Assembly (NCBI GenBank): GCA_048939625.1
Contig: JBHLPH010000004.1
Location: forward strand, 1 to 64,000
DNA: 64,000 nucleotides
From: Promethearchaeota archaeon
Lineage (GTDB): Archaea; Asgardarchaeota; Hermodarchaeia; Hermodarchaeales; Hermodarchaeaceae
Direction: 5' to 3'
Numbering within the stretch: the stretch's first letter is position 1; every line of letters begins with the position of its first letter. Both the position numbers and the translations under genes were made by a program. Below are positions 51,019 to 64,000 of the stretch, piece after piece. The notes beneath the pieces were generated by a model, which was not told where the DNA came from, did not search any database, and saw only the letters and a program-made list of their open reading frames with translations.

Positions 51019-51546
51019 ATGCCATTTCGTGATTACATTGCTGCCCCTCACAAACTAGTGTATATCGAGGGAAAAGATCGGTACGAAATTCCGTGTATTT
51101 TCTGTGCAATAATTGAAGGCAACCCACGTGTGAAAACCAAGATTGTGTATCGCGATTCTAAGTATATGGTAATTCTGAACATGTTTCCATTTAACCCCGG
51201 ACATGTGATGGTGGTCCCAATTCAGCATATTGAGAAACTTTCTGAATTCAGTCGAGAGGAATTGAATGCTTTCTTTCAGATGGGTGCAAAAACAGTGCGC
51301 CTTGTGGAAACCGCTTTCAACCCAACCGGTGTAAATATGGGGTTGAACATTGGTTCTGCAGCTGGGGCAAGCATAGAGCACCTCCATCTGCATATCGTTC
51401 CCCGCTACCCACGCGAATTAGGTTTCATGGAAACAGCCGCCGATACGCGAACTTTGGTAATGGATGCTGAAACCACTTTCAAACGATTAAAACCGCATTT
51501 GCATATTCTACAGGAAGACTTAGGCGAAGAAGCAGGAGGAAAGTGA
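51019..51546 (+). CDS. HIT family hydrolase
   Basis: CIFC, NMFPFNPGH, AGASIEHLHLHIVPR. Confidence 0.93.
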   Translation: MPFRDYIAAPHKLVYIEGKDRYEIPCIFCAIIEGNPRVKTKIVYRDSKYMVILNMFPFNPGHVMVVPIQHIEKLSEFSREELNAFFQMGAKTVRLVETAFNPTGVNMGLNIGSAAGASIEHLHLHIVPRYPRELGFMETAADTRTLVMDAETTFKRLKPHLHILQEDLGEEAGGK

Positions 51547-52091
51547 CATTGGGGAAAAAACGTACCACTGACCATCATGGTATGGTCCAAGTGTATACAG
51601 GACGCGGAAAAGGTAAAACCACCGCGGCATTGGGTCTGGGCCTTCGAGCAGCAGGACATGGTTTTGAAGTGTATATGATTCAGTTCATGAAAGGTCAGAT
51701 TAATTATGGGGAACTCGAAGCGGTGAAACATATTCCGAATTTCACGATTCGACAGTTTGGGCGTCCAGATTTTGTAGATAAAGCAAATCCTGATCCAGTG
51801 GATATCAAATTAGCAAGAGAGGCGCTTGATCATGCCCGAGACATTATCAACGAGGGAAAGGTGGACTTTCTGATTCTCGATGAGGTCAATGTGGCTTTAG
51901 ATTTCCGATTAGTCACAGACCAGGAGGTCTTGGCGTTGATCAAGTCGCGTCCACCTCAAATGGAGCTCATTTTAACCGGACGTTATGCACCTCCAGCGAT
52001 CCTGGAAATCGCGGATTTAGTGAGTGAAGTAAAAGAGATTAAACATCCATACCAGAAGGGAATTGCAGCACGAAAAGGCGTTGAAATGTAA
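51543..52091 (+). CDS. cobA: Cob(I)alamin adenosyltransferase (CobA/BtuR/CobO type)
   Basis: VYTGRGKGKTTAALG, QFMKG, ILDE, LTGR, KHPY..G..ARKGVE. Confidence 0.95.
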   Translation: MTLGKKRTTDHHGMVQVYTGRGKGKTTAALGLGLRAAGHGFEVYMIQFMKGQINYGELEAVKHIPNFTIRQFGRPDFVDKANPDPVDIKLAREALDHARDIINEGKVDFLILDEVNVALDFRLVTDQEVLALIKSRPPQMELILTGRYAPPAILEIADLVSEVKEIKHPYQKGIAARKGVEM

Positions 52092-52113
52092 GGCATAGGC
52101 AAGGTGATGAGGA

Positions 52114-53787
52114 GTGACGAAGAACCGGCGTGTCAAGAAGGCGCTCCGTGACTGGGAAACGAATGTGCTTACGCCATATAAGAAAAGGAGCCCTGAACGT
52201 GCCGACCAGTTCATGACTACCTCGAGTAAACCGGTGAAAAACCTTTACACGCCAGAGGATGTACCTGAGTTCGATTATCTGCAGGACCTAGGGTTTCCTG
52301 GTCAACCCCCGTTTACGCGTGGGGTGTATCCGACGATGTTTCGTGGTCGACTATGGACCATGCGAATGTATTCGGGTTTTGGGAATGCAGCACAAACGAA
52401 TGAACGATACCGGTATCTCCTCGAACAGGGACAAACGGGACTCAGCGTCGCCTTTGACCTTCCAACCCAGATTGGCTATAATTCCGACCACCCGATGGCA
52501 GCGGGCGAAGTCGGTAAATGTGGAGTCTCGATACCTTCAGTTGAAGATATGGCCATTCTCTTCCAAGACATTCCATTGGACAAGGTGAGTACTAGCATGA
52601 CCATCAACGCGCCAGCGTCAGTATTGCTGGCGATGTATGTTGCCATTGCGAAACGCCAAGGAATCGAGCCCAGGGTTCTCCGGGGTACAATTCAAAATGA
52701 TATTCTGAAAGAGTACGTAGCACGAGGAACCTATATCTATCCACCAGAGCCTTCGATGCGCCTCATCACAGATACTTTTGCTTATTGTCAAAAGGAACTC
52801 CCACGCTGGAACACTATCAGCATCAGCGGGTATCATATTCGGGAAGCAGGAAGTACGGCGACACAAGAAGTGGCTTTTACCTTTGCTAATGGGATTGCGT
52901 ATGTTAATGCAGCAATTGAAGCAGGTCTTCAAGTTGATGAATTTGCCCCACGCCTGTCTTTCTTCTTTGGAGCGCACAACGATCTTTTCGAAGAAGTAGC
53001 AAAATTCCGAGCTGCACGTCGCTTATGGTATAAGATCATGCGGGAACGATTCAATGCTGAAAACCCCCGATCATGGCTGCTTCGATTTCATACGCAAACT
53101 GCTGGGTGTAGTTTGACAGCTCAACAACCTGAGAACAACATAGTTCGAGTTACAATGCAAGCACTTGCAGCAGTGATCGGAGGTACTCAATCACTGCACA
53201 CAAACTCCATGGACGAAGCCCTCGCTCTTCCAACCGAAAAGGCAGCGACTATCGCTTTACGCACCCAACAAATCCTTTCCCAAGAAAGTGGTGCTGCTAA
53301 CACTATTGATCCCTTTGCTGGCTCTTATTATATAGAGAATTTAACCAATGACATCGAAGAGGGAGTCATTAGCTATCTTGACCGTATCGACAAAATGGGT
53401 GGTGTTTTACGGGCGATTGAAGCAGGATACATCCAACGGGAAATCCATGATAGTGCATATCGCTATCAACGAGAAATCGAAACAGGCAAACGCGTTGTTG
53501 TTGGTGTGAACCAGTTTGTTATCGCAGAAGAAGAGCAAGCCACTGACTATCTGCGGGTTGATCCAGCAGTAGAAAAGAGCCAAAATCGGAAGCTTGCCCA
53601 ATTGCGGAAGAGGCGTGATGCAAAAGCGGTGGAATCAGCTCTCGATAGGATAACGGTTTGTGCAGAAGGCACTGAAAACCTGCTTTATCCAATTATTGAT
53701 GCCGTCGAAGTTCAGGCTACATTAGGAGAAATTTGTGACGCTTTACGCTTTGTTTTTGGAGAGTATAAGGCGCCTCAGATTTTCTAG
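52114..53787 (+). CDS. Methylmalonyl-CoA mutase, large (substrate-binding) subunit
   Basis: [14 protein letters not shown] (Tyr89 equivalent), [16 protein letters not shown] (Arg207 equivalent), [15 protein letters not shown]. No DxHxxG B12 domain. Confidence 0.95.
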
Positions 53788-55040
53788 CGTTCTTTTTGGG
53801 CACCCGCTTGAGATGGAATCGTATACAGGACAATTGGAATCAGAATTAATCCGATGATTGCACCTACCCAATAGACGCCAGAAAGAGTAAGGCTTGCCAG
53901 TACAATTGCCATTATTAGAGGCCCCAAGGTTTGTCCAAGACGGAGCACTAGCCCATTTAGAGACATCACAGCAGCCCGATACTCAAGGGGAGCGAGATTC
54001 ACTAAGAGATTTTGAGTTGTAGGTATGGCTAGTCCCATTGCTACACCAAATAGACCGACTGGAGTGAGAATAAGAAGAAGGGTTGAGGCAAAGGGAATAA
54101 GAAAGAGCCCCAAAGCCGCAAATGGAAAAGCAGCGACTAGGATTACTTTCATGCGAAAGCGTTGTATCAGAAATCCGACCAGGAATGCGGTAATTGCTGA
54201 GGTTACTGAGATGAAGGAAACAACAAGACCGGCAATGAACGAGTTTACGCTAAACGCAGAGACAACTAGGAAGGGTAAGTAAGTGATTATTGCCCCATAG
54301 AGCATGATGAATATAGCCGTGCTTACAATAAATAGTCCCACTACTTGTTTATCCTGGAGGATGTACCCGATTTGCTCAAAATACTCACGTAAGGTCATTT
54401 CTTGATCGGGACAGGGATCTTTTAGCCAAACGATCGCAGCTAATCCGATTGGAAGAGCCAGAAGCGGAAGATAGAATGGAAAATACCAGGCAAAAAGAGC
54501 CAAGAACCCACCAATTGTAGGATAAGCTGCGGTTCCAATACTTTGGACACTCACATTATACCCCATGACCTGTGTGCGTTGTTTTCGGTGATAGAGATCA
54601 CCTATAACTGTAACATTAAGGGAACTAAGTGAAGCTGCACCAACTCCTTGAACAAATCGAAAAATTAGGAGTACAAGAAATGGCGAGAGCCCGAACATTA
54701 AACCTAAGGGCTCGGAAAAAGTGCAGGCAAAACCAGCGAAACCGAATAGGAGAAGAGAGGGAGCTAATACTCGTTTCCGCCCATAATGATCTGCTGCCAC
54801 TCCAAAAAAGGGTGTGAAAAGCACGCCTGGAATCGTGAAAACAATTATGAGTAAACTCACCATTCCTGGGGGTATCCCTAAGGCGATACTCATGGCTGGA
54901 AATGCCGGTGTGATACTAGCAACGCCCAAAACGGCAATCAGGGTGGTACCAAAAATGATGAGCAGATTGGCATTTAGCGAGGGTCGTCCCTCTGGAGCCT
55001 CAATTGGAGGTCCATCATCAGGTTGCATAATGCGCTCCAA
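53784..55040 (-). CDS. MFS transporter
   Basis: Twelve TMs, [11 protein letters not shown] motif A, RFVQGVG. Confidence 0.92.
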
Positions 55041-55130
55041 CCCCTAACCTTTGATAAAAACGTTTGTGGATTACTACTTAAATGAAACAGAAGTCTTTTG
55101 AAGACTACAAGGGGAAAAGATAGCGGAGAT

Positions 55131-55538
55131 GTGACTCGAGTGCGTATTGCTCACATTGGAATTGCCGTCAAAGATGCAGATACAGCCCTGAAACTATACC
55201 GTGATGTCTTAGGGCTAGAACCCTCAAGCGTTGAAATCGTAGAAACCCAGAAGGTAAAGTCTGTCCATATCCCAATCGGAGATTCGAGCATTGAACTACT
55301 TGAATCCACGAGCTCCGAAGGTGTCGTGGCGAAATTTATTGAAAAACGTGGAGAAGGAATTCACCATATCGCCATTGAGGTCGATGATATTAAGGCAGCA
55401 CTTACTCAAATGAAAGCTCAAGGATATCAATTGATTGATGAAACACCGCGAATGGGCGCAGAAAATATGCAGATTGCCTTCGTGCATCCCCGAAGCACTA
55501 ACGGAGTCCTCTTAGAACTCTGCCAATCAAGCCAATAA
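55131..55538 (+). CDS. mce: Methylmalonyl-CoA epimerase
   Basis: HIGIAV, IELLE, KFIEKRGEGIHHIA, FVHPRSTNGVLLEL. GTG 55131 preferred. Confidence 0.94.
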   Translation: MTRVRIAHIGIAVKDADTALKLYRDVLGLEPSSVEIVETQKVKSVHIPIGDSSIELLESTSSEGVVAKFIEKRGEGIHHIAIEVDDIKAALTQMKAQGYQLIDETPRMGAENMQIAFVHPRSTNGVLLELCQSSQ

Positions 55539-55541
55539 TAT

Positions 55542-56381
55542 GTGAAACCCATGGAATCCCCACCCATTCCCCTCGAACCACGGAACGATCCTTTTCAGCA
55601 CGCTTTTAATAATACCTCAAAAATCGTGTTCAAACGCCTGCTCCATTTTTCCTCCCTCACTTCGACAAACGAATATCTGAAACCTTTAGCTAAAAGAGGC
55701 GAAATTGAGGGACTGGTTGTGCTTGCTGATGAGCAGACAGAAGGACGCGGACGATTAGGTCGATGCTGGCATTCTCCTGCTGGAGGACTCTATTTCTCCG
55801 TTTTAGTCCGCCCGATGACCATTCCTGCATTACAGACACCACTCATCACCCTAACTACGGGTTTAGCCGTCGCAAAGGTGATCCAAACCGCCCTAGGAGT
55901 CAACCCTGCTTTGAAATGGCCTAATGATATTATGATAGGTAATAAAAAAGTCGCAGGAATTCTTGTTGACTCCGCGTTTATTGGTCAAGACATTGAATAC
56001 GCGATAATTGGAATCGGTGTCAATGCCAACATCCCTCTTGTAGAGTTATCTGAGCCGCTTCAAAGGATAGCAACCACGCTTCAGATTGCACTAAATCGAT
56101 CTGTAAACATCCCGCGTCTGTTTGGCTATCTGATTGGTCAGCTTGAATTCTGGTATATGAAACTGCGTGATAAGGGATTCAAAGCTATTGAACCCCATTA
56201 TCGATCACTGAGTATGACATTGGGAAAAACTATTACAATTGACTTGGGTAACCAGAAGGTTTCAGGGTTGGCAAAGTCATTAGACCCTGACGGGGGATTA
56301 TATGTTCAGACAGCAGATGGGCCGCAAGTTTTTCGGAGTGGAGACGTGGTTTCCTCAAAATCGAAGCCAGACATTGAATAA
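55542..56381 (+). CDS. birA: Biotin-protein ligase (class I, no HTH)
   Basis: STN, QTEGRGRLGRCWHSP, KWPND, KVAGIL, GIGVN. Confidence 0.95.
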   Translation: MKPMESPPIPLEPRNDPFQHAFNNTSKIVFKRLLHFSSLTSTNEYLKPLAKRGEIEGLVVLADEQTEGRGRLGRCWHSPAGGLYFSVLVRPMTIPALQTPLITLTTGLAVAKVIQTALGVNPALKWPNDIMIGNKKVAGILVDSAFIGQDIEYAIIGIGVNANIPLVELSEPLQRIATTLQIALNRSVNIPRLFGYLIGQLEFWYMKLRDKGFKAIEPHYRSLSMTLGKTITIDLGNQKVSGLAKSLDPDGGLYVQTADGPQVFRSGDVVSSKSKPDIE

Positions 56382-56433
56382 TCTTAACAAGCCTTTTAGG
56401 CGTAGAATTCTCAGGAGCATTTAGTGAACTACA

Positions 56434-56826
56434 ATGTCATTCACTGGTTTCCAGCTTAATTTGGCTGTTCTAACGGCCCAAATCGATTTTATAGACGGTT
56501 TGATAAACCTGATTTTCGGTGCCTTTGGGCTAATTTTCGTTGTTTTCATTGCCATTTTCGTCGGTATATTCATTTTTGCTTTCTACATGATCTGCAAGAG
56601 CATGCGCGCTGCGGCACGAGACATAGATATGCCAGAACCCGTTCATATTGATCAGGAACTTGGCCATGAAAGACAATTAATTCGAGAAAGTCTTCCTGCT
56701 GAGTGTCCAAACTGTGATGCTCCACTGAAGTATAATGAAGTCATTTGGACAGGACCGCGACAAGCTGAATGCCCTTACTGCGGTACAGTTGTAGAACTCG
56801 AAGAAACAATCGTTGGAGATTCCTAA
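56434..56826 (+). CDS. Membrane-anchored zinc-ribbon protein
   Basis: One long TM, then CPNCDAPL...CPYCG. Confidence 0.75.
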   Translation: MSFTGFQLNLAVLTAQIDFIDGLINLIFGAFGLIFVVFIAIFVGIFIFAFYMICKSMRAAARDIDMPEPVHIDQELGHERQLIRESLPAECPNCDAPLKYNEVIWTGPRQAECPYCGTVVELEETIVGDS

Positions 56827-56906
56827 GAAAAAAGAAATTCCGGTGACCAGCCTATAGGTTGATCACCTGTTCACGTATCTTTATCGGATTGCGCAATGAT
56901 TCAGAT

Positions 56907-57284
56907 TTAGCTAGTCTTCCAGAGCAGGTGGATGTTGCAGTATTCCCGTGCCATTTCTGGCTTGCCTTTCATCGGAAAGTCTGCTTCGGGTTTTTGGCCA
57001 GGTTCGAGAAACTGCCGCATGATTGTGCCGTCTTTGACGACTTGAATCCATTCAATCCAGTGCTCATCCGTCATCGGGTGAGGCGTGGAACCGACGATAA
57101 CGTGGAGACCATCCTTAGTCTCTTCCACAACCGGCACATGCTTTTCTGTCTTGAAGTCAGCGGTGTGCTCTTCCATTAGTTTCATGGGTTGTCCACAACA
57201 TACAAGCGTTCCAGTACCAGTGTGCAGGACTTCGACAATATTTCCGCAAACTTCGCATTTGTAGATTTGGAGTAATTCAGTCAT
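56907..57284 (-). CDS. dfx: Desulfoferrodoxin (2Fe superoxide reductase)
   Basis: YKCEVCGN...CCGQPM, EKHVP, HPM..EHWIEWI, EYCNIH. Confidence 0.96.
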   Translation of the reverse strand: MTELLQIYKCEVCGNIVEVLHTGTGTLVCCGQPMKLMEEHTADFKTEKHVPVVEETKDGLHVIVGSTPHPMTDEHWIEWIQVVKDGTIMRQFLEPGQKPEADFPMKGKPEMAREYCNIHLLWKTS

Positions 57285-57326
57285 TTCATAATCACCAATT
57301 ACAGTACCATTCGACTACCGTGAGGA

Positions 57327-57602
57327 CTAACCTGTCCCTCCCTTTGCCTCCTGTTCTTTCTTCTTTTTGACCATTTCTTGGACATCATTGTAGATCTCTT
57401 CACCTACGCATTCTTTGGCGTATTCACAATACTCTACGCAGGACATCGTATCATTGTAGATGGTAAAGCCGCAGTTCTCACAGTCCATCTTCACGTCACT
57501 TGTAAAGAGTTCAACTTCCTCGCCGCATTTCGGGCAGGTTTTGAAGATGATGGTGGGTCGTTTGAGCGGTGCGGCACCAGGGCAGTCATCGATAATCTTC
57601 AT
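57327..57602 (-). CDS. Small 8-Cys metal-binding protein
   Basis: CPG, CPKC, CENC, SCVEYCEYAKEC. Confidence 0.8.
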   Translation of the reverse strand: MKIIDDCPGAAPLKRPTIIFKTCPKCGEEVELFTSDVKMDCENCGFTIYNDTMSCVEYCEYAKECVGEEIYNDVQEMVKKKKEQEAKGGTG

Positions 57603-57653
57603 GGTTACCGACTAAGAGTTAACATCGTTGACCTTAAAACCGGTTTGGTTTTC

Positions 57654-57956
57654 CTACTCTTCGGCCTCATCCTCTTCGCTAGTCTCGTCCGGTTCAGCAA
57701 GCGGCTTCTGCTCAGATTTTGATTCACCCATCGCATCCGGAGCATACCCTGCCACCTTCTCGATAGCCGCAATCAACTGGTCTTTCAATTCTAAGGAGAT
57801 ACGCACACCTTTTTTGGTGGGACGCCAACTCGCTTCTCCAGCCTGATAATAAATCCGAATATCAATTCCAAGGAATCCTTGCCACTCAGAAAGGGATACC
57901 CAAATTTTTTCAGTTTCACTCCGCGGTAACGCCACTGGTTCACCAACAGTCGTCAT
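57654..57956 (-). CDS. PC4/Sub1/YdbC-family ssDNA-binding protein
   Basis: IWVSLSEWQG...IDIRIYY...WRPTKKGVRI; acidic tail. Confidence 0.9.
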   Translation of the reverse strand: MTTVGEPVALPRSETEKIWVSLSEWQGFLGIDIRIYYQAGEASWRPTKKGVRISLELKDQLIAAIEKVAGYAPDAMGESKSEQKPLAEPDETSEEDEAEE

Positions 57957-58015
57957 AAAATCACCTTACCCCTCAATACTAGAATTCACCCTATAAAGAA
58001 TCGTATTCGTAGATA

Positions 58016-58067
58016 AAACAAGGAAAAGGCGGATTCGGCACTCCACATACGGGGGCCTACCCCCGCC
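58016..58067 (-). terminator. GC-rich hairpin(s) plus U-tract after rubredoxin
   Basis: On the minus strand: CGGGGG-TAGG-CCCCCG, then GTGGA...TCCGC, then CTTTTCCTTGTTTT. Confidence 0.6.
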
Positions 58068-58083
58068 ATAAATATTCAACAAG

Positions 58084-58248
58084 CTAATCCGTCGGCTCGA
58101 ACATGTCCTTGCCAACGCCGCATACAGGACATACCCAGTCTTCAGGGATATCTTCGAACGCGGTACCTGGTGCGATACCTCCGTCGGAGTCACCGACAGC
58201 GGGATCATAGATGTATCCGCACGCTGTGCAGACATATTTCTGTGCCAT
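58084..58248 (-). CDS. rub: Rubredoxin (not in ORF track)
   Basis: [54 protein letters not shown] (54 aa), with an AGGTGA SD. Confidence 0.97.
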
Positions 58249-58319
58249 GCTAGGTCACCTGATTTTGTTGGCTGGTTTCGTCGTTATTATTGTTTGGGTG
58301 TTATGAGTAATGCTGCGAT

Positions 58320-58904
58320 TCAGTAGGTTTCGCAGAGCACTTGGAAGTATTTTCGTGCATGGAAACAGGAAGGACACTGTTCAGGTGGTTCTTCTCCTTC
58401 ATGGATGTACCCGCATTCCCGGCACACCCATTTGGTTGGTTGTTTCTTCTTGAAGACAGTTTTCGCTTCGACTTCTTTGAGGAGTTGGGTGTAGCGCGTG
58501 GCGTGGTGAACTTCTGCGTGGGCGATAGAGCGAACTTGTTTGGCAATTGCTTTGAACCCTTCCGCTTCAGCCGTGTCTGCGATTTCGGGATACATCTTAG
58601 TGTGTTCGTAGGTTTCGCCTTCGATGGCGGCTTTAAGATTGTCGATTGTTGTGCCGACTTTCAAGGGAGCGAGCGCGTCAACTGTGATTTCAGGCATAGG
58701 CTTGCCAGTTTGTTGCATGACAGTATGTGCAGCACGCCAAAAGTTTTTAGCGTGGACACGTTCATTATCGGCAGTAACATTGAAGATTTCGGAGATTTGT
58801 TCGTAACCTTCATTTCGGGCAATTTTTGAATAGATATTGTAGCGATTTCGGGCTTGACTTTCGCCGATAAAGGCTTGGACGAGTCCGATTAACGTTTTGG
58901 ACAT
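58320..58904 (-). CDS. rbr: Rubrerythrin
   Basis: AFIGESQARNRY, NERVHA, GETYE, AEVHH, WVCRECGY...CPSC.H. Confidence 0.96.
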   Translation of the reverse strand: MSKTLIGLVQAFIGESQARNRYNIYSKIARNEGYEQISEIFNVTADNERVHAKNFWRAAHTVMQQTGKPMPEITVDALAPLKVGTTIDNLKAAIEGETYEHTKMYPEIADTAEAEGFKAIAKQVRSIAHAEVHHATRYTQLLKEVEAKTVFKKKQPTKWVCRECGYIHEGEEPPEQCPSCFHARKYFQVLCETY

Positions 58905-59049
58905 AGGGTTCTAACCTCGTTGTTGTATCAATAGGAGTCTGGTTAAGAATCTTTGTGATTTCTAAGCGTTGGGATTTTATCTAAGCACATGGGTTTAAGA
59001 GGAGTGGCTATAGTAGAGAAACCACCCAGTGTAACTAGGAGATGCAAGT

Positions 59050-60609
59050 ATGCCTTCTGACGTGATAAAAAAGAAAATGAAGGAGCTCAACAAGCGCCTA
59101 GATAAAGCTCACCAAGGTGGCGGAAAAGAGCGGATTGAGAAGCAACATAAAACCGGAAAAATGACTGCCCGGGAACGGATTGACCGATTGCTGGATTCGG
59201 GGAGTTTTATGGAATTCGATGCCCTTGTCGAACATCGGTGCACAGAATTCAAAATGGACAAAAACAAAATCCCCGGTGATGGCGTCGTTACAGGCTACGG
59301 TACAATCGATGACCGTCTAGTGTTTGTTTTTAGCCAGGATTTCACCGTGTTTGGCGGAGCACTTGGCGAGATGTTCGGTGAAAAAGTCACCAAGATTATG
59401 GATCTCGCCCTTGAGGCAGGTGCACCCGTCATTGGATTGAATGATTCAGGCGGTGCACGGATTCAGGAAGGCGTAGCTAGCCTTGGGGCATATGGAGAGA
59501 TCTTTTATCGAAACGTTATTGCTTCTGGTGTTATTCCACAAATAAGCGCCATTATGGGACCCTGTGCGGGAGGTGCCGTGTATAGCCCTGCGGTCACTGA
59601 TTTTACGCTGATGGTAAAAAACACAAGCCGCATGTTTATCACAGGACCTAATGTCATCAAAGCCGTAACCGGTGAAGTCATTTCTTTTGAAGAACTGGGT
59701 GGAGCCATGGCACACAACATCAAAAGCGGTGTTGCACAATTTGCCGCAGAAAATGAGGAACATTGTCTCCAACTAATTCGCGACCTGCTATCCTATCTAC
59801 CATCTAACAACGTGGAAGATCCCCCTTATGTTGAACCTACCGATGACCCCCGACGGACGGACCCAGCGTTAAATGAACTACTTCCAGATGATACAACCAC
59901 GCCCTACAATATGAAGCAAGCCATTCTAAGTGTGGCGGATAACCACCAATTCTTGGAGGTCCATGAACACTTTGCTCAGAACATGGTAGTAGGCTTCATC
60001 CGCCTAAATGGTCATCCAGTGGGTGTGGTGGCAAACCAACCAAATTATCTGGCTGGAACCTTAGACATCAATGCGTCGGACAAATGTGCACGGTTTGTCC
60101 GGTTCTGTGATGCGTTTAATATTCCAGTCCTTACCTTTATGGATGTGCCAGGCTTTCTTCCAGGTGTAGATCAGGAACATCGCGGAATCATTCGACACGG
60201 AGCTAAGATTCTTTTTGCATATGCAGAGGCAACAGTGCCTAAGGTGACAGTGATTACCCGGAAAGCTATTGGAGGTGCGTATGTTGTGTTAGGATCTAAA
60301 CATCTTCGAGCAGATGTTGTCTATGCTTGGCCAACTACCGAAATGGCAGTTATGGGTCCTGAAGGCGCAGCGAATATTATTTTCCGTCGTGAAATCGAAA
60401 AATCCAAGGATCCAGAGGCGACCCGCGCTAAACGAATTCAGGAATACCGTGAACGCTTTGCGAATCCCTATTCGGGTGCAGTACGAGGATTCATCGATGA
60501 GGTCATTGAGCCTGCCATTACGCGGTCCCGTGTTATTGCAGCCCTTGAGATGCTGCGGACAAAACGCCAAGTGTTACCCAGAAAGAAGCATGGGAATTGT
60601 CCCCTCTAG
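59050..60609 (+). CDS. Acyl-CoA carboxyltransferase (PccB/MmdA/transcarboxylase 12S-like)
   Basis: [56 protein letters not shown]. Confidence 0.95.
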
Positions 60610-60732
60610 CGACAATTAACTAAAATTCAATATATCGCAGAGGATTTCAGACTCTACATAAGCTTATAACTCAGCCCTATGAAGGGAGTACAATACACCC
60701 CCGGCAGAGCTAGGGCGCTTCGGGAGAAATAC

Positions 60733-61293
60733 ATGATGAAATGTCCTCATTGTGGTGCAACTGTTAAAGAATTTGATACCTTTTGCTATGCCTGTGGCGC
60801 TGCCCTCGATTCAACTGAAAGTGAATTGGGAAAACCAGTAAGCAAAGCTGAGGAATTCAGCCCAGCGCCAAAGCCACCTCGATATGATTCGATGGATTTT
60901 AGTTTTGCAGGATTCTGGAAACGATTTGCCGCGTGGATAATCGATTTCATTCTTTTGTCCATCTTCGCGATTCCACTTTCCTTTATCTTGGCTTTTGTGC
61001 CTTTTCCTTGGGGATCGTTCATTTCGCTTCCGATTTCTATTTTGATTAGCCTCTTGTATTATGGGTTGCAGGAAAGCTCCGTGCATCAAGCGACCATTGG
61101 GAAACGGGCTCTCGGCATTATTGTAACAGATAATTATGGGAACCGTATAACCTTTGGTCGTGCAGCCGCCCGTGACCTTTCTAAGATTATTTCAGGTCTA
61201 ACACTTGGTATTGGCTTCTTGATCATTGGATTTACTGAGAAGAAACAAGGGCTTCACGATATGATTGTAGGTTGTCTAGTAATCAACAAGTAA
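60733..61293 (+). CDS. Zinc-ribbon + RDD family membrane protein
   Basis: CPHCG...CYACG; AGFWKRFAAWIID, QATIGKR, KKQGLHD. Confidence 0.9.
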   Translation: MMKCPHCGATVKEFDTFCYACGAALDSTESELGKPVSKAEEFSPAPKPPRYDSMDFSFAGFWKRFAAWIIDFILLSIFAIPLSFILAFVPFPWGSFISLPISILISLLYYGLQESSVHQATIGKRALGIIVTDNYGNRITFGRAAARDLSKIISGLTLGIGFLIIGFTEKKQGLHDMIVGCLVINK

Positions 61294-61444
61294 CCTCTAC
61301 TTCTTAGTCCTGATAGAAGCAGTGGCAGTTAACAGGGATGAATCCAACTTACGGATCACAGAAGCATGGACAGACAGAAGACTAAAAACTGGTAGTGATT
61401 ATTAGCACCTATCGCCCACCATGAGAAGGTGAAGTAATATCACC

Positions 61445-62956
61445 ATGACCACCACGGTTTCAAAACCCATCAAATTTACCGATACAACCTTTCGGGATGC
61501 ACATCAATCCTTACTCGCGACTCGTATGCGAACTGAAGATATGCTTCCGATTGCTGAGAAGATGGACAAGGTGGGCTTTAATTCCATGGAGGTCTGGGGA
61601 GGCGCCACTTTTGATGCCCCATTGCGATTCTTGAAGGAGAATCCCTGGGGGCGTCTCCGACAACTGCGAGCGGTCATCAAGAAGACGAAGCTGCAGATGT
61701 TATTAAGGGGACAAAACATTGTGGGGTATCGGCATTATCCCGATGATACCGTTCGTGAATTTGTGGAACTTGCTGCTCACAACGGCATCGATATCTTTCG
61801 CGTCTTTGACGCATTAAACGATCCTCGTAACATGAAAACAGCGTTAAAAGCAATTCACAAGGTTGGAGCACATGCCCAGCTTAGTTTTAGTTACACTATT
61901 AGCCCTGTGCATAATGTTGAATCTTTTGTAGAGCAGGCCAAGAACCTTGAAGCGATGGGAGCAGATTCAATCTGTATAAAGGATATGGCGGGTTTACTGA
62001 GTCCATTTATTGCCCGAGAACTCGTGATCCGCCTCAAAGAGGAAATCACAGTCCCGATTCAACTCCACTCCCATTATACTTCGGGCATGGCCAGTATGAG
62101 TTACCTTGAAGCAATCAAAGCTGGTGTGGATGTTGTCGATACCGCGATTTCATCCCTTGCTCAATCCACATCTCAACCCCCGCTAGAAACAATGGTTGCA
62201 GTCTTAGAAGGAACCCCATGGGACTCGCACCTAAATCTTGAGTTGCTGTCAGAAATCGCGGCTTATATCCATGATGTCCGGGAACGCTATGAAGCCTATG
62301 AATGCGGAATGGTGGGAGTTGACACGAATGTGCTACAATTTCAAGTTCCAGGTGGCATGATGTCCAACCTAATAAACCAGTTACGTGAACAAAACGCATT
62401 AGACCGTTTGCAAGATGTATTGGATGAAGTACCACGAGTACGAAAGGAAATGGGATATCCCCCGCTGGTAACCCCTTCTAGCCAGATTGTGGGCACCCAA
62501 GCGACACTGAACGTGTTATTAGGTGAACGCTACAAAACCATCCCTGAGGAAGTGAAACAGTATGTTCGTGGATATTATGGTCGCCCACCGGCCCCCATAG
62601 ATCCGAAAATTCAGAAACTCGTGATAGGTAACGAAGAACCAATTACGTGTCGTCCCGCGGATCTACTTGAACCTGCCATTCCCAAGGCACGTAAAGAGCT
62701 GAAAGGAATCACTTCCGAAATGGAAGATATCATTGCCTATATCCTATTTCCTCAACCTGCTCTCGAGTTCTTCGAACACCGTAAATCAAAGGAAGCCTTA
62801 GAGAAGCTTACACCAGAGATTTTGGCTGCAATCACGGCTGCACTCCTAGAAAAACAGCCTAACCAACCTCAAATGCCAAGTTTCCGTCGTCCAAACACAA
62901 ATGGAATTAATGCATGGGTTCTGGCAGGGCGACGAGAAGCAATGGGTTATGATTGA
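61445..62956 (+). CDS. Pyruvate/oxaloacetate carboxyltransferase (transcarboxylase 5S/OadA/PycB-like) without biotinyl domain, with epsilon/delta-like tail
   Basis: RDAHQSLLATRMR, EVWGGATFD, CIKDMAG, HSH, QVPGGM, YPPLVTPSSQIVG; tail EILAAITAAL...AWVLAGR. Confidence 0.93.
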   Translation: MTTTVSKPIKFTDTTFRDAHQSLLATRMRTEDMLPIAEKMDKVGFNSMEVWGGATFDAPLRFLKENPWGRLRQLRAVIKKTKLQMLLRGQNIVGYRHYPDDTVREFVELAAHNGIDIFRVFDALNDPRNMKTALKAIHKVGAHAQLSFSYTISPVHNVESFVEQAKNLEAMGADSICIKDMAGLLSPFIARELVIRLKEEITVPIQLHSHYTSGMASMSYLEAIKAGVDVVDTAISSLAQSTSQPPLETMVAVLEGTPWDSHLNLELLSEIAAYIHDVRERYEAYECGMVGVDTNVLQFQVPGGMMSNLINQLREQNALDRLQDVLDEVPRVRKEMGYPPLVTPSSQIVGTQATLNVLLGERYKTIPEEVKQYVRGYYGRPPAPIDPKIQKLVIGNEEPITCRPADLLEPAIPKARKELKGITSEMEDIIAYILFPQPALEFFEHRKSKEALEKLTPEILAAITAALLEKQPNQPQMPSFRRPNTNGINAWVLAGRREAMGYD

Positions 62957-62978
62957 CATTAAACATTGAGGGAAAGCA

Positions 62979-63560
62979 GTGACACGAAAATACAAACTAA
63001 CGGTCAACAGCAAAATCGTTGACGTCGAGGTTGAGGGTCCCATCAATGGAATCCTCATTGTTACTATAGGTGAGACTTCGTTTCCCGTGCAAATTAAAGA
63101 CGGTGATACTCAATTAGAAAAATTCGATATTAAAGTAGGCAACGTTAAACACACAATTAGCCTTACACCAAATCCCAATACCTCAGAATTCACGATTAAA
63201 ATCAATAAGGAAACCTATACCGCCTTCTTAGCTAGAGAATCTGTAACACCTTCCCGAAGCATTCGAGCACCAACAATTACTACTGCTCCAACTAGCTTCA
63301 CACCCTCCACTCAGCCTTCAACGGAACCACCCCAAGAATCCGCCGAACCAGGCACAGTAACCGCCCCCTTACCGGGACGTGTTCTCGAAGTCTGTGTAAA
63401 AGAAGCGGATGTCGTCAAACTCGGCGATGTCTTGCTGGTGTTAGAAGCTATGAAAATGGCAAACGAAATTCGCGCCCCTCAAGACGGAACTGTTAAACAT
63501 ATCCATGTTGAAGCTGGAACAGCTGTAGAAAAAGGACAGCCCATGATAAGCTTCCAGTGA
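62979..63560 (+). CDS. Biotin carboxyl carrier protein (1.3S-like)
   Basis: APLPG, LEAMKMANEI biotinylation motif, Pro/Thr/Ser linker, beta-rich N-terminal domain. Confidence 0.95.
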   Translation: MTRKYKLTVNSKIVDVEVEGPINGILIVTIGETSFPVQIKDGDTQLEKFDIKVGNVKHTISLTPNPNTSEFTIKINKETYTAFLARESVTPSRSIRAPTITTAPTSFTPSTQPSTEPPQESAEPGTVTAPLPGRVLEVCVKEADVVKLGDVLLVLEAMKMANEIRAPQDGTVKHIHVEAGTAVEKGQPMISFQ

Positions 63561-63793: not shown

Positions 63794-64000
63794 TCTGCAG
63801 ATGGGATTTATTTCCTTATCAGCTACTCAAGATACTATCTAAGCCTAAGTCCATCAAGTAGAGGTCAGATTGTCTATTGCCAAAACCATTAAAACCGCAG
63901 CATCCTAACTGAAGAAACAAGAGACCATTTCTCACATGGTCAGTTCCTTGTGATGGCGACGTCTGATGGAAATAAAAGAGAAGGAAACCGTATCCCAAAT

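Follow-up and report, generated by a model that had tools for sequence, protein, structure and literature searches.

A putative ATP-independent transcarboxylase-type biotin enzyme encoded beside methylmalonyl-CoA mutase genes in a Hermodarchaeota genome

We have analyzed the first 64 kb of the 121-kb contig C53 (GenBank JBHLPH010000004.1, positions 1 to 64,000; this whole stretch is called the window below) of a Hermodarchaeota metagenome-assembled genome (MAG; 2.31 Mb, 83 contigs, 87.6% complete, 6.3% contamination), where the genes for a 12S-like acyl-CoA carboxyltransferase, a 5S-like pyruvate/oxaloacetate carboxyltransferase and a stand-alone biotin carrier lie in one locus with a methylmalonyl-CoA mutase. 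As judged from their sequences, these three proteins quite probably make up a methylmalonyl-CoA:pyruvate transcarboxylase-type enzyme (EC 2.1.3.1-like) that would work without ATP, and this enzyme is the only biotin enzyme in the source genome. It is noted that a preliminary description of the window had also proposed an ATP-independent transcarboxylase, and this reading is supported by the two carboxyltransferases and the carrier being the only ones of the genome and by the absence of both biotin carboxylase and OadB. Genes were called from a listing of open reading frames (ORFs) together with Pfam and NCBIfam profile scans of the window, according to which all three subunit genes are intact. 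The subunits and their predicted parts are as follows.

59050-60609, plus strand: 12S-like acyl-CoA carboxyltransferase of the PccB/MmdA family (PF01039, 662 bits; TIGR01117, 871 bits, under the cut-off of 999)
61445-62956, plus strand: 5S-like pyruvate/oxaloacetate carboxyltransferase (PF00682, HMGL-like, and PF02436, PYC_OADA; no PF00364 in the ORF)
62762-62956, plus strand: conserved C-terminal tail of the 5S-like subunit
62979-63560, plus strand: stand-alone biotin carrier of 193 amino acids with an EAMKM motif (PF00364, 68 bits)
62979-63242, plus strand: N-terminal BT-type beta-barrel of the carrier, residues 1-88
63243-63560, plus strand: linker (residues 89-121) and biotinyl domain (residues 122-193) of the carrier, with the K159 codon at 63453-63455

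The genome-wide profile searches, which were run on the six-frame translation, gave one Carboxyl_trans match, one PYC_OADA match and one biotinyl-domain match in the source genome, all three of them within the locus. Since the genome has no other biotinyl domain, the carrier at 62979-63560 is the only possible substrate of the BirA biotin-protein ligase, and with a single Carboxyl_trans and a single PYC_OADA domain the choice of catalytic partners for the carrier is limited to two. In the same searches the source genome gave no Biotin_carb_C match for a biotin carboxylase and no OAD_beta match (PF03977) for a membrane beta subunit of the OadB/MmdB/GcdB kind. Moreover, tblastn of the source genome with four Asgard biotin carboxylases returned only an ATP-grasp_3 protein at 19-24% identity; this protein, at C71:1450-2673, was considered as a cryptic biotin carboxylase and rejected because it is without the N- and C-terminal domains of the carboxylase.

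The same absence is seen in the relatives. In the family comparison set (family f1, 18 relatives and the source genome, 19 in all), neither biotin carboxylase nor OadB was found in any of the 18 relatives (0/18 for each), of which 16 have the 5S-like gene. In an evenly drawn phylum sample of 151 Asgard genomes, the 5S-like gene occurs in 17 of 19 genomes of f1, 25 of 26 of f6, 3 of 3 of f12 and 1 of 1 of f17, and all 45 carriers of the gene in f1, f6 and f12 are without biotin carboxylase and without OadB. In the Asgard families that do not have the 5S-like gene, biotin carboxylase is common. In total, 45 of the 46 carriers are without both partners, and among them are two closed genomes of 2.8 Mb and many that are at least 95% complete. 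Because the absence extends over the 45 carriers of f1, f6 and f12, incompleteness of the MAGs cannot explain the missing partners. The lack of biotin carboxylase and of OadB/MmdB, which the preliminary description had pointed out for the window, is thus borne out, and also extends to the genome and to family f1; a biotin carboxylase or a Na+-pumping beta subunit elsewhere, which that description had held would speak against its reading, was found neither in the source genome, nor in the 18 family genomes, nor in f1, f6 and f12 of the phylum sample. The sole exception is the f17 genome G041 (91% complete, 9% contamination), which has the 5S-like gene, biotin carboxylase and OadB and is the only OadB-positive genome in the phylum sample. 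In G041 the split 12S/5S cluster has the tail described below, and a pair of biotin carboxylase and carrier as well as OadB (E 5.5e-141) lie on other contigs.

The functional parts found here are those of the transcarboxylase of Propionibacterium freudenreichii subsp. shermanii, i.e., an acyl-CoA carboxyltransferase in the 12S role, a biotinyl-free pyruvate carboxyltransferase in the 5S role and a separate carrier with its ligase, with no biotin carboxylase and no membrane beta subunit, and with linkage to mutase and epimerase. The 12S, 5S and 1.3S subunits of that enzyme are clear homologues of the archaeal ones, but none of the three archaeal subunits has its closest relative there. Among the solved chains, the 12S-like subunit scores 721-700 bits with the beta subunits of propionyl-CoA carboxylase (PCC) and 594 bits with the P. 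shermanii 12S (1ON3); the 5S-like subunit scores 545 bits with the two-subunit PycB 5KS8, 515 bits with Vibrio OadA (2NX9) and 458 bits with the Propionibacterium 5S; and the carrier scores 68 bits with the P. horikoshii carrier and 55 bits with the Propionibacterium 1.3S. In NCBIfam, the 5S-like subunit reaches 770 bits with the PycB-domain model NF006761 and 558 bits with the P. shermanii-type 5S equivalog NF008984, under its cut-off of 827. The short 1.3S carrier of about 123 amino acids is not found here either: its biotinyl domain (1DD2, range 47-123) is preceded by no more than about 46 residues, compared with an 88-residue BT barrel in the archaeal carrier, and the solved P. shermanii 5S sequence has no match to the tail of the archaeal 5S-like subunit. 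The likeness to the Propionibacterium enzyme that was drawn in the preliminary description therefore stands for the functional parts, which are the same and include neither an ATP-dependent nor a membrane partner, but not for the subunits as close orthologues.

The other known biotin enzymes share single parts with the locus. PCC (alpha6beta6; 3N6R, 7YBU, 6YBP) has the beta subunit to which the 12S-like subunit is most similar, and the carrier repeats the C-terminal portion of PCC alpha, that is, the BT domain, the linker and the biotin carboxyl carrier protein (BCCP) domain; unlike in PCC, however, no biotin carboxylase domain or gene is present in the genome or the family, and a pyruvate carboxyltransferase is encoded instead. 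The pyruvate carboxylase PycA/PycB (methanogens, Methylobacillus 5KS8) and the decarboxylases OadABG/MmdABCD share with the 5S-like subunit the TIM-barrel carboxyltransferase and PYC_OADA domains and the catalytic motifs, with RDAHQS, IKDMAG and LHSHYTSG kept in comparison with 5KS8 and 2NX9; the residues of RDAHQS, IKDMAG and HSH we take to be catalytic, in line with the literature on 5S and pyruvate carboxylase. By contrast, PycB and OadA each have a fused biotinyl domain of their own and a partner, PycA or OadB, and the archaeal 5S-like subunit is without the domain and without the partners: there is no PycA biotin carboxylase, the 5S-like ORF ends in a non-biotinyl tail, and no PF03977 beta subunit occurs in the source genome or family f1. 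The contrast with fused archaeal PycB that had been claimed for the window holds, since in methanogens the homologues carry a fused biotinyl domain and are encoded next to a biotin carboxylase.

The fold model of the carrier consists of three parts, a confidently predicted eight-stranded beta domain (residues 1-88), a disordered linker rich in Pro, Thr and Ser (89-121; predicted local distance difference test score, pLDDT, about 34) and the biotinyl domain (122-193). The N-terminal domain folded alone gives a pLDDT of 88.6, and in a Foldseek search with it the top 36 matches are all chains of PCC, methylcrotonyl-CoA carboxylase (MCC) and acetyl-CoA carboxylase (ACC), with the MCC and ACC matches falling in the BT (biotin carboxylase-carboxyltransferase interaction) region. 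The best match is 8ZUZ_A (E 7e-5, TMq 0.82, root-mean-square deviation (rmsd) 2.2 A over 86 columns). A search independent of Foldseek (VIA) placed the BT domain of yeast ACC, 5CSA_B, first (Z 7.9, rmsd 2.4, 80 aligned), the next match having Z 5.4; the Pfam PCC_BT match of the carrier is weak (E 0.013). The biotinyl domain superposes on the P. horikoshii BCCP 2D5D with Z 15.5 and rmsd 0.9, and E156, A157, M158, K159 and M160 are invariant among 15 carriers, K159 being the predicted biotin-accepting lysine. In PCC and MCC holoenzymes the BT domain anchors the alpha subunit on the beta core. Based on the fold model, the carrier looks like a PCC alpha subunit minus its carboxylase part, and it probably docks on the PccB-like 12S core via the BT barrel.

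The tail of the 5S-like subunit reads 'T-PE-x-x-AA-I-x-A', a variable linker and then 'W-x-x-AGR', with A23, A26, W52 and R57 invariant in 18 tails. In the gene contexts defined below, the tail motif is present in all 19 type A (split) proteins and in 0 of 38 proteins of type B or C (OadB- or biotin-carboxylase-linked), a count that is descriptive, as the pattern behind it is loose and was defined post hoc after a stricter first pattern had been set aside. Independent of the pattern there is a gap in length, the 5S-like proteins of type A having about 500-530 amino acids versus about 469 in types B and C. When the tail was predicted in complex with the 12S-like subunit, the score was 0.50 versus 0.02 for the best of 3 controls; at least 46% of the contacts were common to the runs, and the partner pLDDT was at least 62. 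In the benchmark, 58 of 80 solved complexes attain 0.50, as do 2 of 110 mismatched pairs, and among the passing pairs scores of 0.60 or less belong to only 7 of the 80 solved complexes and to both of the passing mismatches. We hypothesize, with weak support from this model, that the tail may dock the 5S-like subunit to the 12S-like core. Note also that homology of the tail to the ACC epsilon subunit was considered and is not established: its best Pfam match, ACC_epsilon (PF13822), is not significant (E 0.17, 13 bits versus a cut-off of 25), the scans of three further tails were without a match, and a profile built from 18 tails matched no solved ACC epsilon subunit and no P. shermanii 5S chain.

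The gene contexts were surveyed for the 80 best 5S-like homologues in the genome collection, and they fall into three types.

Type A: 12S, 5S and a separate carrier, in Asgard archaea, Bathyarchaeia, Chloroflexota, Acidobacteriota and others
Type B: 12S, carrier, OadB and 5S, in Clostridia
Type C: 5S fused to BCCP and adjoining a biotin carboxylase, in methanogens, Syntrophomonas, Nitrospirota and others

The carriers of type A loci have 156-236 amino acids versus 123-153 in type B. A maximum-likelihood tree of the carboxyltransferase domains was built by a quick search with SH-aLRT (Shimodaira-Hasegawa-like approximate likelihood ratio test) support only; its 87 rows are the 80 best collection homologues and Asgard relatives, with the Propionibacterium, Pelotomaculum and Thermococcales references left out. 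In this tree the sequences of Hermodarchaeia, Thorarchaeia, f12 and G041 cluster with the type A bacteria (27 rows, SH-aLRT 97), the clostridial OadB-linked sequences form a clade of their own (SH-aLRT 100), and methanogen PycB joins a second set of Bathyarchaeia apart from the group of the source protein. Type A is clustered but not exclusive. For the 5S-like gene, the nearest homologues come from Hermodarchaeota MAGs, at 89% and 77% identity, and the next from Thorarchaeota, at about 62%, which places the source organism among the Asgard archaea. In the loci L029 and L060 (Bathyarchaeia) and L022 (Chloroflexia), a type A cluster that is otherwise identical is accompanied by a biotin carboxylase and a second carrier, which in L029 and L060 lie directly upstream. 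Together with G041, these cases mean that the type A module is not intrinsically independent of the carboxylase and that in other lineages it can be coupled to ATP-dependent carboxylation.

Around the three subunit genes the locus has the following features, the contig coordinates (C53) being given where they pass the window edge.

51543-52091, plus strand: CobA/BtuR-type ATP:corrinoid adenosyltransferase (PF02572, 217 bits; TIGR00708, 174 bits, above the cut-off)
52114-53787, plus strand: methylmalonyl-CoA mutase large subunit MCM1, without a B12 domain (PF01642, 769 bits)
55098-55538, plus strand: methylmalonyl-CoA epimerase (TIGR03081 equivalog, 153 bits versus a cut-off of 115; syntenic in relatives)
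55542-56381, plus strand: BirA biotin-protein ligase without a repressor domain (TIGR00121, 190 bits)
60679-61293, plus strand: Zn-ribbon and RDD membrane protein (PF06271 and PF13240)
C53:63966-65642 (63966-64000 within the window), plus strand: second mutase large subunit MCM2
C53:65661-66071: small B12-binding mutase subunit, the only one in the genome
C53:66080-67054: MeaB
C53:68131-70153, past the window edge: EtfB and ferredoxin-fused EtfA

Every gene that the preliminary description had listed was recovered on the plus strand at these positions by the ORF and profile scans, and the small mutase subunit and MeaB, which it had left to a search of the whole genome, lie just beyond the window edge (C53:65661-67054). 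In the genus the order is kept as epimerase, BirA, further genes, 12S, (RDD), 5S, carrier, MCM2, B12 subunit, MeaB, one gene and EtfBA. The 5S-like protein and the carrier are separate ORFs in every relative compared, including the closed genomes, Thorarchaeota and Bathyarchaeia; open frames of 600-733 amino acids that looked like fused forms in relatives are stop-to-stop spans, and the ORF comparison shows separate genes. The locus is broken up by unrelated genes, i.e., a minus-strand gene for a transporter of the major facilitator superfamily, a conserved Zn-ribbon protein, an oxygen-defence block and the RDD gene. The oxygen-defence block, on the minus strand at 56907-58904, consists of desulfoferrodoxin, a Zn-ribbon protein, a PC4-like single-stranded-DNA-binding protein, an ORF of 89 amino acids and rubrerythrin, and is syntenic across the genus. 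The RDD gene between the 12S-like and 5S-like genes is present in 4 of the 12 loci of genus g1 that span both flanks, namely in the source genome and its relatives G005, G009 and G011, and the other loci of the genus are without it; the idea of the RDD protein as a new membrane partner was dropped on this count.

For the mutases, the numbering was fixed with 5REQ (the entry of the Y89F mutant), and MCM1 was aligned to 1REQ and 5REQ. MCM1 has Tyr and Arg at the Tyr89 and Arg207 positions (WTMRM-Y, VA-R-GTY), so that the specificity residues previously read from the window are confirmed by alignment. MCM2, 65% identical to MCM1, has Phe and Gln at these positions, the signature of the isobutyryl-CoA-mutase type, with AFHLPT in place of AFDLPT. 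It appears that a single B12 subunit serves both large subunits.

Elsewhere in the source genome, a soluble TfrAB-type fumarate reductase (thiol-dependent, methanogen-like) adjoins a two-subunit class I fumarase at C28:30951-35729, SucCD is on C42, and there are at least five ADP-forming acyl-CoA synthetases. By their sequence assignments, TfrAB, fumarase, SucCD, the acyl-CoA synthetases, MCM1, the B12 subunit, MeaB, epimerase and CobA would cover every step that leads from fumarate to propionyl-CoA and on to propionate. Such a route fits an electron sink, and the soluble fumarate reductase favours the reductive direction. Malate dehydrogenase was not found, the Ldh_1_C type being in 0 of 19 family genomes and the Ldh_2 type nowhere in the source genome, and PEPCK_GTP is likewise in 0 of 19 family genomes; the genes found thus do not close the Wood-Werkman cycle in its canonical form. 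Malic enzyme is in 17 of 19 family genomes, with a fragment in the source genome at C49:3523-4299. In addition, a distant protein of the phosphoenolpyruvate carboxykinase (PEPCK) superfamily, of 644 amino acids at C31:20088-22022 (NF006821, 55 bits versus a cut-off of 369), is in 18 of 19 family genomes and, to judge by its family, could link oxaloacetate to phosphoenolpyruvate.

Based on our reading of the locus, BirA would biotinylate the carrier at K159, and the biotin on K159 would take the carboxyl group at one carboxyltransferase site and hand it over at the other, giving the net reaction (S)-methylmalonyl-CoA + pyruvate <-> propionyl-CoA + oxaloacetate with no ATP and no ion gradient. 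In build, the enzyme would be a propionyl-CoA carboxylase whose biotin carboxylase module is swapped for a pyruvate carboxyltransferase: the BT barrel of the carrier would sit on the PccB-like 12S core, and the 5S-like subunit may be tethered by its C-terminal tail. Epimerase, MCM1 with the B12 subunit, MeaB and CobA would join the enzyme to succinyl-CoA, CobA supplying the adenosylcobalamin of the mutases. Its most likely role is in the succinate-to-propionate branch that would serve as an electron sink in the fermentation of amino acids and organic acids. The gene content, its uniqueness in the genome, the absence of the partners, the conservation and the predicted domain folds are given above as direct observations; that the three proteins form a complex, that the complex is active and in which direction it runs we infer from them.

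There are several points that weigh against the transcarboxylase reading and have to be set beside it. The function is read from the complement of subunits and not from orthology, the 5S-like subunit falling under the NF008984 cut-off for 5S and resembling PycB and OadA more than it does the solved 5S, and the 12S-like subunit resembling PCC beta subunits more than it does the solved 12S. The split cluster coexists with biotin carboxylase, which is adjacent to it in some Bathyarchaeia and in one Chloroflexia locus and elsewhere in the genome in the Asgard G041. The source genome is an incomplete and partly contaminated MAG, and with only malic enzyme and the distant PEPCK-like protein found, and no malate dehydrogenase, the step from oxaloacetate to malate in the Wood-Werkman cycle is unaccounted for. 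Some of these points are shared by the proposal that the proteins belong to an ordinary ATP-dependent PCC or two-subunit pyruvate carboxylase, or to a Na+-pumping decarboxylase, with the missing partner gene in unassembled DNA: the MAG is 87.6% complete, the split clusters L029 and L060 adjoin biotin carboxylase, G041 has both partners elsewhere, and the subunits are closest to PCC beta, PycB and OadA. If this proposal is true, however, the partner would have to be missed by chance in the source genome and in 18 family, 26 f6 and 3 f12 genomes, two of these closed, which is not credible, and the tblastn search with Asgard biotin carboxylases gave only an unrelated ATP-grasp_3 protein; we regard this proposal as very improbable.

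Two other proposals keep the carboxyltransferases as they are and give them a different task. It was proposed by Zhang et al. 2021 (PMC8163825) that the mutase and 'methylmalonyl-CoA carboxyltransferase' belong to the alkane pathway, which would imply that the 12S-like protein acts in anaerobic alkane degradation by de- or transcarboxylating (2-methylalkyl)malonyl-CoA derived from alkylsuccinate, with the mutase rearranging the carbon skeleton. The contig of their gene (L018) is syntenic with the source locus, and two mutase paralogues are present; but the Phe/Gln pair of MCM2 fits non-carboxylated substrates and not alkylsuccinyl-CoA, the locus also encodes methylmalonyl-CoA epimerase and the Tyr/Arg-type mutase, and the same cluster occurs in Thorarchaeia, Bathyarchaeia and bacterial lineages. 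A PFL-like (pyruvate formate-lyase-like) glycyl-radical enzyme of the AssA/BssA type was found nowhere in the source genome, an incomplete MAG, which thus lends no support to an alkane-degrading role of Hermodarchaeota, and we consider this role unlikely. It could also be that the carboxyl transfer is real and serves another job, either as, together with malic enzyme, a net methylmalonyl-CoA decarboxylase that conserves no energy, or in reverse, where oxaloacetate derived from aspartate would give up its carboxyl group to propionyl-CoA that stems from amino acids and from odd-chain fatty acids, so as to feed succinyl-CoA. This agrees with malate dehydrogenase being found in none of the 19 family genomes and malic enzyme in 17 of them, SucCD could yield ATP from succinyl-CoA, and the EtfBA genes and the isobutyryl-CoA-mutase-type mutase that adjoin the locus fit acyl-CoA catabolism. 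A plain decarboxylase, however, has no need of a pyruvate carboxyltransferase, the presence of fumarase and of a soluble fumarate reductase of the TfrAB type speaks for the reductive direction, a membrane succinate dehydrogenase for succinate oxidation was not seen, and, according to Imachi et al. (PMC7015854), no Asgard genome has the full set for syntrophic propionate degradation; another job of this kind is, in our estimate, improbable as well.

Going further than the transcarboxylase reading itself, we tentatively suggest, as a possibility that has somewhat less than an even chance, that the enzyme represents a distinct class of transcarboxylase derived from a PCC-like assembly and not from the Propionibacterium enzyme. 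Such a class would have a PccB-like core, a carrier of BT domain, linker and BCCP that has no carboxylase part and docks like PCC alpha, and a conserved epsilon-like C-terminal tail holding the pyruvate carboxyltransferase on the core; it would have spread by gene transfer among Hermodarchaeia and Thorarchaeia, other Asgard lineages, Bathyarchaeia, Chloroflexota and Acidobacteriota; and it would be the sole biotin enzyme where biotin carboxylase is absent.

The idea of a transcarboxylase in Asgard archaea is already published. A transcarboxylase-linked propionate pathway was inferred as a conserved Asgard trait by Imachi et al. 2020 (PMC7015854), who scored propionate metabolism by these genes, and Zhang et al. 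2021 (PMC8163825) reported that every Hermodarchaeota genome has a methylmalonyl-CoA carboxyltransferase and a mutase and assigned the two to alkane degradation, giving only one carboxyltransferase gene (12S-like) and never mentioning biotin. Both studies are genome-based and concern the same genes with the same functional reading, but they report neither that biotin carboxylase and OadB are absent at the level of family and phylum, nor the BT domain of the carrier, nor the tail of the 5S-like subunit. What is new here is the quantitative test of absence across the family and the phylum, the BT-domain carrier, the type A-specific 5S tail and the malate dehydrogenase gap. Biochemical work on an archaeal transcarboxylase was not found in full-text literature searches, so that the statement of the preliminary description that there is no characterised archaeal example is right for biochemistry, but the genomic proposal for Asgard archaea had been made in the two papers above.

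The transcarboxylase step makes the Wood-Werkman propionate route ATP-neutral, and to our knowledge the biochemistry of transcarboxylase is known only from bacteria. That malate dehydrogenase was not found in family f1 points to a genuine gap in the pathways as reconstructed in the literature. The locus offers a compact, intact and conserved set of three subunits together with BirA, and the BT-domain carrier and the 5S tail give testable ideas of how such an enzyme may assemble without the bridge made by a Propionibacterium-type 1.3S subunit. Finally, we note that Asgard archaea are the closest known relatives of eukaryotes and that the published models of ancestral Asgard metabolism, with amino-acid fermentation and fatty-acid by-products, rest partly on this enzyme.

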